A stretch of DNA of 11,563 bases from Candidatus Heimdallarchaeota archaeon (GTDB lineage: Archaea; Asgardarchaeota; Heimdallarchaeia; JABLTI01): positions 1-11,563 of the forward strand of contig JAHLVW010000049.1 of NCBI GenBank assembly GCA_019058275.1. Direction: 5' to 3'. Position numbers and translations under genes: made by a program. This document shows positions 1 to 9,492 of the stretch, one piece after another. The notes below the pieces were generated by a model, which saw only the letters and a program-made list of their open reading frames with translations, searched no databases and was not told where the DNA came from. Positions within the stretch are counted from its first letter, which is position 1, and every line of letters begins with the position of its first letter.

Positions 1-347
1 CATTAATAACAAACAAAAGACTTCCAGAATATTCACCTTGGGGCTCCCTTCGGTATAAAATCCCGTTGCGGGTTAATAGGGGATGTAGATTATGGGAGCA
101 TCTCCAGGTTAAAATTTGAGTTTCCTTTAGATAATCTTGGGATACTTGTACAACTTGATCTAGGAATGCCATTCAGGATAAATTATTTTTCTCCTGCAGA
201 AAATAATTTATTTTTTTATCCTGTTTCCTGTAATGATTTTTTCCCTTAAGTTGCTCGAATCTCAATATTAACTCATTATTTTTCCTTATATAATTTATGT
301 AATAATTACAACGAGAGAAAAAAGTCTCTGTTGATAAATTTAGAAGG
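1..347 (+). ncRNA. Structured repeat unit U1 (divergent subtype; left end cut by window)
   Basis: P1 stem GGGGCTCCC...GGGAGC (~40-99). Rod arms TTGGGAT/ATCTCAA, CAACTT/AAGTTG, CAGGATAAA/TTTATCCTG. Right end ATTAACTC...TATATAATTTATG shared with U3, U4, U7; ends in the 22-bp site. Transcription and strand are inferred from G-U bias. Confidence 0.6.
326..347 (+). repeat. 22-bp right-boundary site, copy 1 of 7
   Basis: CTCTGTTGATAAATTTAGAAGG; other copies at 1717, 2196, 4721, 5477, 5616, 9471. Confidence 0.85.
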
Positions 348-402
348 CAAAACAACTTTATGAATTGATAATTCAATGATTTTTAGCTAATAAATTACCG
401 AC

Positions 403-780
403 TTTAGATTTTAAAGCTTAAAATTTAATACAAAAGTAAAGAATGTATTTTTGAGCCAGGGTGCTCCCATTGAGGTGAATCCTTGGCGCCCTTTAACAGG
501 GATTTAATATTGTGGGAGCATACCCAGGACAAAGTTTGAGTTTCTTAAGGGTCTCATACGTGGGGATTATTCCATGCATATCTTTATTGAAGACACACTA
601 CTCGTAAAAAGAATTTTTCAGGAGGGTGATAGTATCCTTTTTCTGTAGTAGGTTTTTCTTCAAAGATATACTAAATCCCATAGTAACTCTTCTTTCACGC
701 TTTTATTTTTTTTGAAATTACTATTTCTTTAGTAAAGGCGTTTCTTTTTGGTGAATTTTAACCATATCTTGAGAAAAATG
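403..780 (+). ncRNA. Structured repeat unit U2 (subtype A)
   Basis: Palindrome TTTAGATTTTAAAGCTTAAAATTTA at 403; P1 GGGTGCTCCC (459-468) / GGGAGCATACCC (514-525); P2 TGAG..CTCA; rod ~561-680; oligo-T 701-713. Closely similar to U5 and U6. Confidence 0.7.
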
Positions 781-786
781 GCTCAC

Positions 787-895
787 TTTAGATTTTAAAG
801 CTCAAGATTAATAACAAACAAAAGGCTAGAAGAATATATGCCTGGGTGCTCCCTTCCGAATAAAATCCTGTTGCGGTTAAAAGGGAATGAAGATT
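787..895 (+). repeat. Left part of interrupted unit U3
   Basis: Palindrome variant, then GATTAATAACAAACAAAAG and GGGTGCTCCC plus loop. Similarity to U1/U5 stops after ...GAAGATT, just before the 3' strand of P1. Confidence 0.8.
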
Positions 896-917
896 CAGTC
901 ACTAAAAAGTCCCTCCA

Positions 918-1415
918 TTAATAATATGCCCATCTCTCAGCGTATGCTGTTTCTTTCTCTAAATCAAGGAATTCCAAGTATGGCTCCTCACCAACATCCC
1001 CACCAAGAACTATGAATGTAGGTCTGATTCTTACAATAATCATCCCTGGAAAATTCTCCCAAAGTGCGATCGACTCAGGAAACTTCTTTCGCAGTATATC
1101 TGTATATTTTCTATTATTGTCATTTGTGAGGTTTCCCAATATCTCAGCTATCCCTTCTATTTGTACTCTATCTTTACACAAAGCAACACGGGGATTCATC
1201 TGAATTTGTATAGCTTTTCGCGAGTGTCCCCAGGTAAAGAAGTAAATTTCGAGTTCATTATTAGCAATCAACACGTTTCGTGCAAGAACTTTGTTGTTAT
1301 GAGAGGTTGCAAGCACCATTATGCTATTGTCTTTTAATTCCAAGAATTTTATTAGCTCCTCTTTTTTCTTTACATAATCGAGTTCCCATTTAGTCTTTTC
1401 TTTCTTGTTATCCAT
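918..1415 (-). CDS. Pyridoxamine 5'-phosphate oxidase-like FMN-binding split-barrel protein
   Basis: 165 aa with motifs MVLATS, IYFFT..HSRK..QI..NPRVALC and VQIEG.AEI; SD-like GAGGAGAG upstream. Confidence 0.85.
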   Translation of the reverse strand: MDNKKEKTKWELDYVKKKEELIKFLELKDNSIMVLATSHNNKVLARNVLIANNELEIYFFTWGHSRKAIQIQMNPRVALCKDRVQIEGIAEILGNLTNDNNRKYTDILRKKFPESIALWENFPGMIIVRIRPTFIVLGGDVGEEPYLEFLDLEKETAYAERWAYY

Positions 1416-1428
1416 TTTTTCACTCTCC

Positions 1429-1563
1429 TCAAATCTTAGATATGCCTGTAAAATATAATCTTGGCTTTCTTGGAATTAATCCTACTAAAAATTTGATGAA
1501 CCCTATAAGAGCTATAATTGTTATTATTATTACCCCTGCTATTAAAATATCATTCCAATTCAT
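1429..1563 (-). CDS. Small single-pass membrane peptide, 44 aa (not in ORF track)
   Basis: MNWNDILIAGVIIITIIALIGFIKFLVGLIPRKPRLYFTGISKI*; its stop abuts the SD of 918-1415. Confidence 0.55.
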   Translation of the reverse strand: MNWNDILIAGVIIITIIALIGFIKFLVGLIPRKPRLYFTGISKI

Positions 1564-1607
1564 TGTTAGTTTCTGATATACTTTGAATTAATCACTTATT
1601 TAAAGTA

Positions 1608-1738
1608 ATCTGTTTTTCTGCATATTATTTTTTTCCTACAAGTTGCTCGAATCCTCATATTAACTCCTTATTATTCCCTATATAATTTATGAAGCAACTT
1701 ACACAAGTGTAAGAAATTCTGTTGGGATAGTTAGAAGA
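1608..1738 (+). repeat. Right part of interrupted unit U3, including 22-bp site (1717-1738)
   Basis: AAGTTGCTCGAATC..ATATTAACTC..TATATAATTTATG matches U1 ~248-299. Confidence 0.8.
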
Positions 1739-7620: not shown

Positions 7621-7642
7621 AAAAATATTTAAAATAATAGGA

Positions 7643-7826
7643 AGATCCTGATTGCACAAGACTAAAAGCATGCTGCTCTCCAAATTTCGCTAGTTTTTCT
7701 TTTACTAAATTCGCTACATCTGATTCAGTCATTCCTGGAGAAATTTCTCTAAAAGATTCAATAATTACATTTGAGCAATTCGGTTGCTTGACGCATTAAA
7801 GAAATTTCATCATCATAATTCACACA
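7643..7826 (-). pseudogene. Fragment of M24 family Xaa-Pro peptidase
   Basis: DDEISLMRQA, then a frameshift, then ESFREISPGMTESDVANLVKEKLAKFGEQHAFSLVQSG; matches the start of the M24 catalytic domain. Confidence 0.7.
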
Positions 7827-7870
7827 CTATCAATATTTGTTCTGAATGGGTTATTAATTGTTGTTCTTTC

Positions 7871-8089
7871 TCAATGTGAAGAAAAAACAAAGATATAGCA
7901 TTCTAAAATACACACAAAAACATTTCTAAACTCTATTCCACACATTATTGCAATCACTCTTGCAGCATTACAATCTGCATCTATACCTTTTGAGTAGCAT
8001 TCTTGACAAAAAAAAAATAGATATAGGTAATTCTGTATGTGGTTAAGTTTTATATACGCTATATTTTTTTGTAATTTTTTCATTTTCAT
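7871..8089 (-). pseudogene. tnpB: TnpB/Cas12f-like C-terminal fragment (motif at ~7943-8015)
   Basis: FFCQECYSKGIDADCNAARVIA resembles the second CxxC plus RuvC-III DxDxNAAxNI motif; upstream motifs are absent. Confidence 0.6.
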
Positions 8090-8221
8090 GAAAATTAATC
8101 GATAAAAAAATTAGCAAATCTTGTAATTAGTATGCTCAAGATTAGTAGATTATCAAAATTACTTCTGAGAATTCTCAATCTTATGTCTGAAGAGCTGGTG
8201 CTTACTCTGTCCTTCTTTTGA

Positions 8222-8380
8222 TTAGGTATCGTAAACAGGGCAATGTTTCTCTTTGGTTTCATAGAACTGGCAATGAGTGGTTGGTTTATTATCTTGTTTG
8301 TTTTTAGATGATGGATAATGAGGACATAAATCTTTGATGAGAGGGCAGAAAAAGCTTTGATCATCTGTTTTGTTGGTCAT
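8222..8380 (-). CDS. Small 4-Cys protein, 52 aa (not in ORF track)
   Basis: MTNKTDDQSFFCPLIKDLCPHYPSSKNKQDNKPTTHCQFYETKEKHCPVYDT*; purine-rich leader upstream. Confidence 0.55.
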   Translation of the reverse strand: MTNKTDDQSFFCPLIKDLCPHYPSSKNKQDNKPTTHCQFYETKEKHCPVYDT

Positions 8381-8621
8381 CTATTTCCTTTTCCTTCTGC
8401 AAAAGCAATTAACTCTGAACTACTAAGCATATAATTATTTTTTCGGGATAAATTGTTGAGTAATATTAAAAAGTTGATTGAAAGATGAAAAGGATAGTTG
8501 TAATAAAAATAAGCTTCTTTTCAATATAAGATTCAGTGGAACTCCTACTCAACAACTAATTCTCTAGACTTATTTATAGAGAAGCTCATGAGATGTGGAT
8601 GTATGAAAGAAAAAAACTCTC

Positions 8622-9080
8622 TTTAGATTGTAAAGCTGAAGATTAATAACAAACAAAAGTCTAGAAGAATATTATCCTGGTTGCTCTTATTGAGGTTAAT
8701 CCTCGGCGCCCTTTAACAGGGATTTAATATTGTGGGAGCATACCCAGGACAAAATCTGAGTGTCTTTAGGGTCTCATATATGGGGATTATTCCATGCATA
8801 TCTTTATTGAAGACACACTACTCGTAAAAAGAATCTCTCGGGAGGGTGCTAGATATTCTTTTCCGGTAGTAGGTTGCTCCTCAAAGATATACTAAATCCC
8901 ATAGTAACTCTTCTTTCACGCTTTTATTTTTTTTTTGAAGTTACTATTTCTTTAGTATAGGAGTTTTAATATGGCAAAATTTTACCCATATCTTGAGAAA
9001 AATAACTCTGGAAACTGATTTTTGCCAATGGATTACAGATAAAGAAGGACTAGTTATCAAAAGAATATTGGAATTCGCAA
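8622..9080 (+). ncRNA. Structured repeat unit U6 (subtype A) plus tail
   Basis: P1 8676-8748, where GCTCTTA replaces GCTCCCA (G-U compatible on +); rod and oligo-T as in U2/U5. Confidence 0.7.
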
Positions 9081-9144
9081 AATGAAATGAAGGTTCTTTC
9101 TGCGAAAGAGCTCTATGATTTTAGTTCAAAAAAATAATCAAAGC

Positions 9145-9492
9145 TTACAAATTTTAGCTAAAAATTTATTATAGATTGCATAAATTCCTTTATTGTCCCT
9201 AAAGGGCACCCAGCATTTTGTACTGGAGATAACAAATGGTTGGGAGCCCTATCAGGACACTCTTTGTTTAAGTGGAGTCAAACAAAGTTTTGAGTCGGGA
9301 TTATTTGCACATCCTTTTAGAAGACACACTACATTTTGTAAATTTCACATAGAGAGGAATTACAACCTTTTCCTGTAGCAAATTTTTCTTCAAAGATATA
9401 CTGAATCCCCATATTAACTCCTTATTATTCATTATATAATTTATGAAGTAACTAAAACAAGAGTACGAAATTCTGTCGGGAAAGTTAGAAGG
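9145..9492 (+). ncRNA. Structured repeat unit U7 (subtype B)
   Basis: Collinear with U4; compensatory pair GGGT/ACCC in U4 versus GGGC/GCCC here; ends in site 9471-9492. Confidence 0.7.

Follow-up and report, generated by a model that had tools for sequence, protein, structure and literature searches.

The window, i.e. the whole stretch of DNA analyzed here, is an entire 11.5-kb contig from the MAG of a Heimdall-group archaeon (92.8% complete), and its DNA is AT-rich with a GC content of 31%, at which TATA-like octamers are frequent anyway. It contains seven co-oriented copies (U1 to U7) of one non-coding module family, which are spaced 0.4-3.4 kb apart and stand between solo copies of a short site and blocks of cargo genes (Table 1). 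The module is ~350-440 nt long and its 3' end consists of a 21-32-nt site or a decayed copy of this site. All units have the same order of parts, namely a small palindrome, P1, a small middle hairpin, a rod of ~120-150 nt and a tail. Both the seven co-oriented units at their places and the common order of palindrome, P1 and rod in all of them had been proposed in a preliminary description of this DNA and are confirmed here.

Table 1. Units, sites and blocks in the window, in order of position.
Feature	Positions	Strand	Description
U1	1-352	+	leader cut by contig start; P1 type C, middle hairpin, rod type C, TATA-like tract, site 326-348
U2	353-785	+	leader a1 (palindrome and TATA-like box); P1 type A 455-530; middle hairpin; rod type A to about 690
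U3, 5' part	785-895	+	leader a2 and first half of type-C P1
U3-interrupting segment	896-1607	-	712 nt; replaces about 165 nt of U3; PNPOx-like ORF 918-1415(-)
U3, 3' part	1608-1743	+	type-C rod 3' arm, TATA-like tract, site 1717-1739
Spacer and leader	1741-1866	+	87-97% identical to 5640-5763; between a site and the next unit
U4 (type B)	1817-2222 (start also put at 1867)	+	leader aB, P1B, P2, rod B, TATA-like tract, site 2196-2218
Block X	2651-3889	-	320-aa ORF 2729-3691(-)
Solo site	4721-4743	+	only ~32 nt common with C24:41 and C42:2188; both flanks differ
Block Y	4965-5499	+	last part is solo site 5477-5499
Site	5616-5638	+	followed by shared spacer and leader; identical to site at 1717
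U5 (mosaic)	5715-6150 (start also put at 5764)	+	leader a1, P1 type C, middle hairpin and rod type A, oligo-T tail
Block Z	8064-8605	-	89-aa ORF 8095-8364(-)
U6	8606-9008	+	leader a2, P1A, middle hairpin A, rod A, oligo-T tail
preB stretch	9009-9144	+	precedes type-B units, conserved; end of a short open frame and small hairpin
U7 (type B)	9112-9497 (start also put at 9145)	+	site 9471-9493

Two covariance models were built, one for P1 and one for the rod, which match U1 at 31-113 and 119-275, respectively. In U3 the homology stops at 895/896 and the P1 model gives only a partial match (853-898, model positions 18-64). What had been taken for a short unit is in fact the two ends of one type-C unit split by the segment 896-1607, and no site is present at either of the two junctions of this segment. 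The tail of U2 consists of a T8 run and a decayed tail where the site would stand. U5 joins a P1 that is 81-82% identical to the type-C query to a middle hairpin and rod of type A (92-93%), and the preB stretch ahead of the type-B units is also present on C24, G004:C172 and G005:C290. The alignment of the units suggested in the preliminary description was possible over their full length, and types A, B and C are thus one family. The three subtypes exist as variants, but they are homologous end to end and not separate; their parts reassort freely, and at least ten combinations of leader, P1, rod and tail variants were found. The assumed limitation of the small hairpin P2 to types A and B had to be abandoned, as type C also has a middle hairpin (several minimum-energy folds). 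Likewise, both kinds of tail, oligo-T and TATA plus site, are indeed present, but they are homologous and the type-A oligo-T tail is a decayed form of the latter; on metagenome contig L175 there is a copy in which a type-A body is followed by an intact site. This mosaicism of the units is what ordinary homologous recombination would give.

The conserved junction is the 21-32-nt site, TTCTGKYGRKAWAKTTAGAAG, plus an A-run. The dyad of the site comprises only 4-5 nt and there is no attC core; a conserved GTT is lacking, TTTAGAAG being more frequent than GTTAGAAG. Besides its position at the end of units, where it follows the end of the rod at a distance of about 75 nt, the site also stands alone (4721, 5477 and 5616). 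Using a degenerate search with one mismatch allowed we identified 15 copies of the 21-nt site in this genome, and the reversed control pattern had 0 matches in 83 genomes. The sites are all co-oriented on C39 (7), C24 (4), C37 (3), C49 (3) and G021:C4 (6). A comparison of the sites at 1717 and 5616 revealed that the homology covers the site and its right side and begins exactly at TTCTG, and C24:331 and C42:2477 have only the right side in common. When two modules are adjacent, the second one usually has a site ahead of it; the module therefore behaves like a non-coding cassette or an extended version of the junction repeat.

The module folds more strongly than expected by chance, and its fold is conserved. 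For U2 the z-score of the fold is -3.3 on the plus strand and -3.1 on the minus strand, with 0/200 and 2/200 shuffled sequences folding as well. Over 21 copies, pairing in P1 amounts to 93%, four pairs are changed on both sides, and controls with slid partners reached only 30-59%. The P1 of type B retains the long stem despite a different sequence, and the rod helices show changes on both sides between types, e.g. CAACTT/AAGTTG versus TATCTT/AAGATA at aligned columns. Within types the covariation is weak (0 double changes in 16 type-C rods), the sequences being close kin. Indels between copies break reading frames and the mini-ORFs on the minus strand are not conserved, in support of the earlier view of a non-coding family with conserved structure.

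Which strand carries the fold is less clear-cut. On the plus strand, G-U pairs by far outnumber A-C in P1 (about 28 versus about 5 cells) and in the type-C rod (29 versus 5), but the count of 1x1 mismatches in P1 plus rod (8 G-U versus 12 A-C) speaks against this strand. In addition, the consensus fold of the type-A and type-B rods is much better on the minus strand (-17.7 versus -3.9 kcal/mol), and a BRE-like CATAAA adjoins the tail TATA on the minus strand. Because of this conflicting base-pair evidence, the fold may act in DNA, or on either strand. A TATA-like octamer is located 22-25 nt ahead of the first paired base of P1 in three unrelated leader variants, and T5-T8 runs follow 3' of the rod in the oligo-T tails, in the long hairpin-bearing tails of G001/G004 and in the TATA tails of type C. 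The combination of a TATA-like box before P1 and a T-run after the rod in most modules suggests that each module is a predicted plus-strand RNA gene of ~240-260 nt.

The DNA between the units consists of blocks that recur elsewhere in new contexts. Block X, whose 320-aa ORF has no Pfam match, is also found in G005:C437 and on metagenome contig L159 (86-87% identity), in both cases in other surroundings. Block Y is 92-95% identical in G001:C150, L155, L130 and G021:C4, and its last ~110 nt are 89% identical on C37. Its downstream neighbor differs in every copy, and the break lies just after TTTAG(A/G)(A/G)G in the five junctions read (window, G001:C150, L130, L155 and C37). Block Z matches the end of contig C117 at 90% identity and occurs as well in G001, G005, G004 and L130; at its left edge there is no site. 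The distance between blocks Y and Z also varies: they are adjacent in G001, separated by ~1.2 kb with one ORF in L130, and separated by ~2.6 kb in the window, where a second site, U5 and a 393-aa ORF lie between them. Altogether, the same cassettes have different neighbors in four genomes of the genus and on several metagenome contigs, and their homology often, although not always, breaks at the site. As breakpoints at block edges are expected for any recombination inside a shared block, these junctions do not prove the action of a site-specific enzyme. The cargo comprises DNA methylases, Mrr, Gabija/PARIS-type ATPases, HEPN-AbiV, DUF4411, spare aaRS genes and redox enzymes. In the window most of it runs against the direction of the units, on C24 it runs with them, and elsewhere the directions are mixed.

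Three further MAGs of the genus and about eight metagenome contigs likewise contain diverged copies of the module. Therefore, the repeats are real and an assembly artefact is ruled out. Copies are 65-90% identical to each other, are restricted to few array contigs instead of being dispersed over the genome, and stand in inverted orientation on two metagenome contigs (L136 and L175). The family is accessory, as it was found in 4 of the 11 genomes of the genus and is missing from 6-7 of them, including the best assembled ones, and copies were also detected in MAGs of two other families. The array contigs break within the repeats, and a head or anchor of the array is therefore not definable from them.

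The claim that no mobilizing enzyme is present holds for the window and also for the set of about 30 array contigs used for enzyme searches. There is no recombinase in the window, the six Phage_integrase matches of the genome are all located on other contigs, and a tblastn comparison of all six integrases with the array contigs gave no tyrosine recombinase match. Neither a reverse transcriptase (PF00078) nor an IS110 transposase (PF01548) was matched in this 92.8%-complete genome. Of the protein families that had been proposed as possible neighbors, tyrosine recombinase is absent from the array contigs, IS110 and reverse transcriptase had no match in the genome, and TnpB is encoded by 13 genes in the genome, the nearest of which is 6 kb away on another contig; the TnpB genes carry their own 160-nt 3' repeat, which is dissimilar to the units. 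A search against Rfam 15 yielded 0 matches at the gathering threshold and only snoRNA/miRNA matches at chance level (E 0.3-10). The window has no tRNA gene, and the genome encodes its SRP RNA and its RNase P RNA on other contigs. This is in line with the earlier statement that the units do not match CRISPR, canonical attC, tRNA or SRP layouts: a CRISPR array was rejected, as it would have a leader and short identical repeats at a regular 60-80-nt spacing, in contrast to the length, divergence and distances of the units, and no attC cores are present.

Taken together, we assume that the window is part of an accessory and defence cassette island which is shuffled by recombination and contains a new structured boundary module, with a probability of roughly 45% for this reading including both its RNA-gene part and its shuffling part. 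The island would be a hypervariable region of accessory genes, partly defence genes, in this archaeon and a few close relatives, built as a mosaic of small blocks with the co-oriented site at many joints; the module would be either a cassette without a gene or a longer version of the junction repeat. The module itself might be a self-contained small RNA gene on the plus strand with TATA-like box, P1, middle hairpin, rod and mostly a T5-T8 run. Blocks and module parts would be exchanged by recombination within the shared site or module sequences, and the agent of this exchange might be the host's own homologous recombination, a site-specific recombinase encoded elsewhere, or a combination of the two. 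The fixed orientation of the sites would limit it to insertion and deletion, without inversion. An integron-like shuffling by a trans-acting recombinase, as originally proposed, is in agreement with the reused cassettes and with homology ending at the site, but nothing points to a dedicated recombinase, and joints without a site like the left edge of block Z argue against strictly site-bounded cassettes. The far-reaching version, in which the modules are a new ~250-nt RNA class or a folded-DNA site active in cassette capture, and the island is an archaeal analogue of the integron with a 21-nt site and no linked integrase, seems improbable to us.

The same arrays could also have grown by accretion. 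In this case, the module would be a host ncRNA gene or a small paralogous family that serves as landing site for cassettes without integrase, a role played by the ends of tRNA, tmRNA, rRNA and RNase P genes in other cases, the integrase acting in trans, and solo sites and partial units would be displaced 3' tails of varying length left by serial integrations. Such an origin is possible, albeit rather unlikely. It would explain why the 3' end is kept in all copies and the 5' extent varies between about 30 nt in solo sites and 370+ nt, with intermediate extents of 100-190 nt in G021:C77, G021:C4:3976 and L159:4356, and why the sites are co-oriented apart from the inverted copies in L136 and L175. 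Moreover, on C24, C27 and C117 ordinary chromosomal genes are located 5' of a full unit and the array lies off its 3' side. However, no single anchor can be named, full-length diverged copies are found mid-array and in tandem, and the absence of the module from 6-7 of the 11 genomes indicates that it is not a core RNA gene. The aaRS gene beside the head on C24 is itself an accessory paralogue found only in G000, G005 and G003, and no integrase is linked.

If the fold acts in single-stranded DNA, the site together with the rod, P1 or both could be an archaeal counterpart of attC, whose hairpin shape is read by an unlinked recombinase; the subtypes with their different sequences would then be tolerated, since only the shape matters. 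Structure retained across diverged subtypes, imperfect long hairpins with conserved bulges, the inconsistent RNA strand signal and cassette-like arrays without an enzyme, as known for attC clusters lacking an integrase, would fit, but we consider this quite improbable in view of the many joints that consist of the short site alone with no upstream hairpin. Furthermore, about 75 nt lie between the end of the rod and the site, an R''/R' core pair is missing, the modules have 3-4 times the length of attC, and the cargo is not co-oriented with the sites. A locally multiplied non-autonomous transposable element, either a MITE or a palindrome element of the IS200/IS605 type, is very unlikely, even if the family is multi-copy, structured, non-coding and patchy among relatives, reaches two other families and coexists with 13 TnpB genes: the copies are confined to few array contigs, co-oriented and in tandem, no terminal inverted repeats spanning a unit and no target duplications were seen, the units are unlike the TnpB 3' repeat, and 65-90% identity does not indicate recent bursts. 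Least credible is a guide or template RNA of an RNA-dependent mobile system, like the bridge RNA of IS110, the omega RNA of TnpB/IscB or the msr-msd of a retron. The predicted ~250-nt multi-hairpin RNA with a long rod adjoining variable DNA loosely resembles the msr-msd layout, but this explanation is disfavored by the missing reverse transcriptase, IS110 transposase and Rfam match, by a complementarity between site and body that does not exceed that of shuffled sites and has inconsistent pairing positions, and by the remote nearest TnpB gene with its unrelated repeat.

No known organisms are more closely related to eukaryotes than the Asgard archaea, and to our knowledge gene gain and shuffling in this group are poorly understood. 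The locus shows a compact, lineage-restricted system: the joints of a fast-changing island rich in defence and accessory genes are marked by a short oriented site and by a large folded module, and no enzyme of a known kind (integrase, transposase, reverse transcriptase or guide-RNA enzyme) is attached to it; we know of no recombinase that matches such arrays of modules and sites. As an RNA gene, the module would represent a new archaeal RNA family with about 30 known copies that is linked to genome plasticity; as a DNA site, it would indicate an unrecognized recombination system. In both cases the site and the two covariance models are handles for finding such islands, which are broken up by standard assemblies.

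Integrons have also been reported in Archaea (PMC9668308). The window resembles them in its row of small unrelated, partly defence-type blocks between co-oriented repeats, some of the blocks being non-coding, and in the presence of the same block in different orders in related genomes. In contrast to integrons, there is no IntI-type integrase near any array here, cargo genes stand either way round and some joints have no site. The joint is the 21-32-nt site with its 4-5-nt dyad and an optional module of ~400 nt, whereas the joint of the integron is an attC hairpin of 57-141 nt with R''(RYYYAAC)...R'(GTTRRRY) cores, and no inverse core was read in the units. Another parallel is given by islands in which one insertion after another has used the 3' ends of tRNA/tmRNA genes, among them the tycheposon arrays with their cargo-only satellites (10.1101/2020.12.28.424599). 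They share with the window the co-oriented repeats with conserved 3' end and variable 5' extent, the small accessory blocks without their own integrase, the fast gene turnover among close relatives and the assemblies that break in repeats. Here, however, the repeat is untraceable to an annotated gene (no tRNA or Rfam match, and neither SRP nor RNase P RNA), full-length diverged copies occur inside arrays and in tandem, and the repeat family is itself accessory.

A further comparison is offered by the intergenic mosaic elements of Neisseria, in which dRS3 repeats of 20 bp flank variable RS units. In these arrays a short repeat with a terminal dyad bounds mosaic non-coding units, and they are points of gene gain and loss, recombination and prophage integration. 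The short dyad-ended repeat that delimits mosaic non-coding units in intergenic arrays is common to both, but the archaeal arrays belong to another domain of life and differ in sequence, and their units are much longer, strongly folded and might have their own promoter and terminator.

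The stretch constitutes the whole of contig C39 (GC about 31%) of a metagenome-assembled genome of 4.12 Mb in 118 contigs, with a completeness of 92.8% and a contamination of 6.8%. Repeat finding in combination with BLAST and MAFFT alignment confirmed the seven co-oriented units of the preliminary description. In every unit the order of the parts is constant: a leader with a small palindrome, P1 (a long stem whose tip varies), a small middle hairpin, an imperfect rod of 120-150 nt and a tail. The three subtypes proposed earlier do not hold as separate kinds, as leader-to-tail alignment with MAFFT yields a single family whose members are mosaics. 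Leaders (a1, a2, aB), P1 (A, B, C), rods (A, B, C) and three tail forms are joined in at least ten combinations, counted over metagenome contigs and four genomes, this one and three sisters. In detail, the P1 of U5 is of type C but its rod of type A, and U2 and U6 share an identical body type behind different leaders. Both described tail forms, the oligo-T tail of type A and the TATA tract plus site, are present, but they are not distinct ends: alignment identifies the oligo-T form as a decayed TATA-plus-site tail, and a metagenome copy (L175) carries a type-A body with an intact site.

Features of contig C39
Feature	Position	Remark
Unit U1	1-352	truncated by contig start
Unit U2	353-785	
Unit U3	785-895 plus 1608-1743	two pieces
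Piece within U3	896-1607	712 nt
Unit U4	1817-2222	
Solo sites	4721, 5477, 5616	
Block Y	4965-5499	recurs in other genomes
Unit U5	5715-6150	
Block Z	8064-8605	recurs in other genomes
Unit U6	8606-9008	
Unit U7	9112-9497	

U3 is a single type-C unit with its middle replaced by a piece bearing a PNPOx-like gene plus flanks. No site is present at either junction, and this is an example of illegitimate insertion into a repeat. A reading of the units as coding repeats was rejected because single-base indels occur between copies and because the minus-strand mini-ORFs, located behind an SD-like AAGGAG, vary in frame and length from copy to copy.

Compared with shuffled controls, the fold of U2 reached z values of -3.3 and -3.1 on the two strands. 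P1 is 93% paired in 21 copies, where slid controls reach 30-59%; both sides have changed at four of its pairs, and type B retains P1 with a different sequence. Between type C and types A/B the rod helices show paired changes at aligned columns, a cross-type covariation that rests on reading alignments, the type-C rod model having missed the A and B rods. RNAalifold on MAFFT alignments of all types together returned empty structures because the registers differ between types; alignments per type worked. As within-type variation is small and all sequences are close kin, the conserved structure has good support, although covariation statistics do not prove it. Rfam contained no match at the gathering threshold and nothing real at E<=10. 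In line with the earlier statement that the units resemble neither tRNA nor SRP RNA, ARAGORN finds no tRNA, and SRP RNA and RNase P RNA are encoded on other contigs.

All three leader variants contain a TATA-like octamer 22-25 nt ahead of the first paired base of P1, preceded by an A-rich stretch; a TATA-like box at this spacing is the geometry of an archaeal promoter. Furthermore, the oligo-T tails, the type-C TATA tails and the long, hairpin-bearing tails of units in G001 and G004 (two further members of the genus) have a T5-T8 run 3' of the rod; type B has no T-run there. The octamer ahead of P1 together with the T-run suggests a predicted plus-strand RNA of about 240-260 nt per module. The strand statistics partly agree with such an RNA and partly contradict it. 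One-sided changes in P1 lead almost all to G-U on the plus strand and type-C rods show 29 G-U versus 5 A-C, whereas the consensus fold of the A and B rods is far better on the minus strand, where the BRE-like flank of the tail TATA is also the better one, and the count of structure-neutral mismatches is balanced between G-U and A-C. Should the module turn out to be transcribed or to serve as a recombinase substrate, the locus would gain greatly in interest.

No element is better conserved or more widely reused than the site at the 3' end of the modules, which reads TTCTGKYGRKAWAKTTAGAAG followed by an A-run and had been described as a 22-bp site. Besides the solo copies in the window, there are others without a module on contigs C24, C37, C42, C49 and C4. 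Allowing one mismatch there are 15 copies in this genome, and three more members of the genus and two MAGs from other families also have the site; the reversed control pattern had zero occurrences across 83 genomes. A match on a 301-kb metagenome contig falls within a coding gene and was discarded as chance. The orientation is uniform per contig (7/7 on C39, 4/4 on C24, 3/3 on C37, 3/3 on C49 and 6/6 on contig C4 of G021, one of the MAGs from another family), a rule broken by two metagenome contigs. On the minus strand a 96-aa ORF (9441-9731) crosses the site (9471-9493) and enters the U7 tail; it is either a spurious call or a gene using the site as its last codons.

Several comparisons suggest that movable blocks are joined at the site. 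Block Y is 92-95% identical in G001:C150, the contigs L155 and L130 and G021:C4, and 89% identical over its last ~110 nt on C37. The units in these genomes are clearly less similar, at 78-80%, which suggests that lineages exchanged the block recently. At all five junctions of the block that were read, the DNA differs immediately after TTTAG(A/G)(A/G)G. C24:331 and C42:2477 have common DNA only to the right of the site. Between the sites at 1717 and 5616 the similarity takes in the site itself and the DNA to its right, beginning exactly at TTCTG, and the site at 4721 and C24:41 have no more than about 32 nt in common. In G001 block Y adjoins block Z; the two are separated by ~1.2 kb with one ORF in L130 and by ~2.6 kb in the window, where a second site, U5 and a 393-aa ORF lie between them. 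The left edge of block Z is away from any site and differs between genomes, and the orientation of cargo genes relative to the sites is variable. Breaks at the edges of shared blocks are expected from any recombination within a block. Between successive units there is usually a site plus a spacer of 40-50 nt ahead of the next leader, and the unit therefore behaves as a non-coding cassette.

Within this genome, C49:3033-3798 and C24:7808-8573 carry a PAS sensor gene at 97% identity, after which the two contigs continue into wholly different cassettes. Either the MAG contains a mixture of strains or the flank is duplicated; the pattern points to possible between-strain variation at array loci.

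The 99 ORFs taken from about 20 array contigs comprise DNA methylases, an Mrr nuclease, Gabija/PARIS-type ATPases, HEPN-AbiV, DUF4411, flavin reductases, a peptidase, two spare aminoacyl-tRNA synthetases and many orphans, which is typical island content. A class I synthetase of the Trp/Tyr type likewise belongs to the cargo. The right end of the window (10576-11562) encodes an FG-GAP/beta-propeller repeat protein that is cut by the contig end and whose DNA has a periodicity of 144 nt (repeat family D17). The absence of a mobilising enzyme noted before was borne out: the array contigs lack a tyrosine recombinase, and all six tyrosine recombinases of the genome lie elsewhere. A search for the enzyme by co-occurrence failed, as neither of the two integrase types followed occurs in all four array-bearing genomes; the C5 and C20 types each have a close orthologue solely in G005, another genome of the genus. 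The integrase shared by C5 and G005:C119 is part of a distinct integrated element that has neither a site nor a unit in its vicinity. In our genome this element is split across the end of C9 and the start of C5, and, judged by eye from the DNA, it also contains a putative TFIIB-like gene. Neither a reverse transcriptase nor an IS110 transposase was detected in the 92.8% complete genome. TnpB on C27 is 6 kb away and unrelated to the units. A further repeat of ~160 nt, also unrelated to them (C117:50576-50736, C27, C5, C45, C52, C53, C73, C78), accompanies several TnpB genes at their 3' ends or close by, where the guide-RNA region would be expected.

Units and sites are present in four genomes of the 11-genome genus (this one, G001, G004 and G005), and the others, including the best assembled ones, contain neither. 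Copies on G021:C4, G021:C77 and G071:C306, binned to two other families, may stem from mis-binning or from transfer. About eight more related contigs came from one metagenome scan. A virus or plasmid origin was dismissed: a scan of viral contigs yielded no further copies, only three single, unrelated hits. Nearly every copy lies on a short contig or at a contig end, indicating that the repeats break assemblies. In the published work on Asgard mobile elements that we found, this repeat is not described.

It is conceivable that the array was built on the 3' tails of an RNA gene. The 3' end of the units is constant and the 5' extent variable, and full units adjoin ordinary genes on C24, C27 and C117, but no anchor can be named, since the module family is accessory within the genus and its neighbour on C24 is an accessory synthetase paralogue. 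This class II enzyme (AspRS/AsnRS-like, 438 aa) lies directly upstream of units at C24:5345-6661 (L121) and at G005:C437:215-1525. It is 95% identical between these two genomes, 63% identical in G003 of the same genus and about 34% identical to two core paralogues common to every genome of the genus, and was rejected as anchor. The same applies to a short open frame ending ...KRILEFAK (8940-9082 and 6161-6220), which covers both the type-A tail and the region preceding type-B units and has no full-length relative in the genome.

The ambiguity of the strand would fit a folded-DNA site like attC, but many joints are hairpin-free and a gap of 75 nt separates rod and site. A transposon should have defined ends, be dispersed, leave target duplications and come with a partner transposase; all of this is missing here. 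For a guide RNA, there is neither a partner enzyme nor complementarity between site and module body, the duplex energy of the two being no better than with shuffled sites.

The integron-like logic proposed in the preliminary description holds in part: with its reuse of cassettes, the locus works like the integrons of bacteria and archaea (PMC9668308), but it lacks the features that define an integron. It likewise works like islands grown by accretion at tRNA tails, for example tycheposon arrays (10.1101/2020.12.28.424599), but without an identifiable anchor gene. What the array adds to these systems is that the boundary element is itself an orphan, folded, mosaic module.
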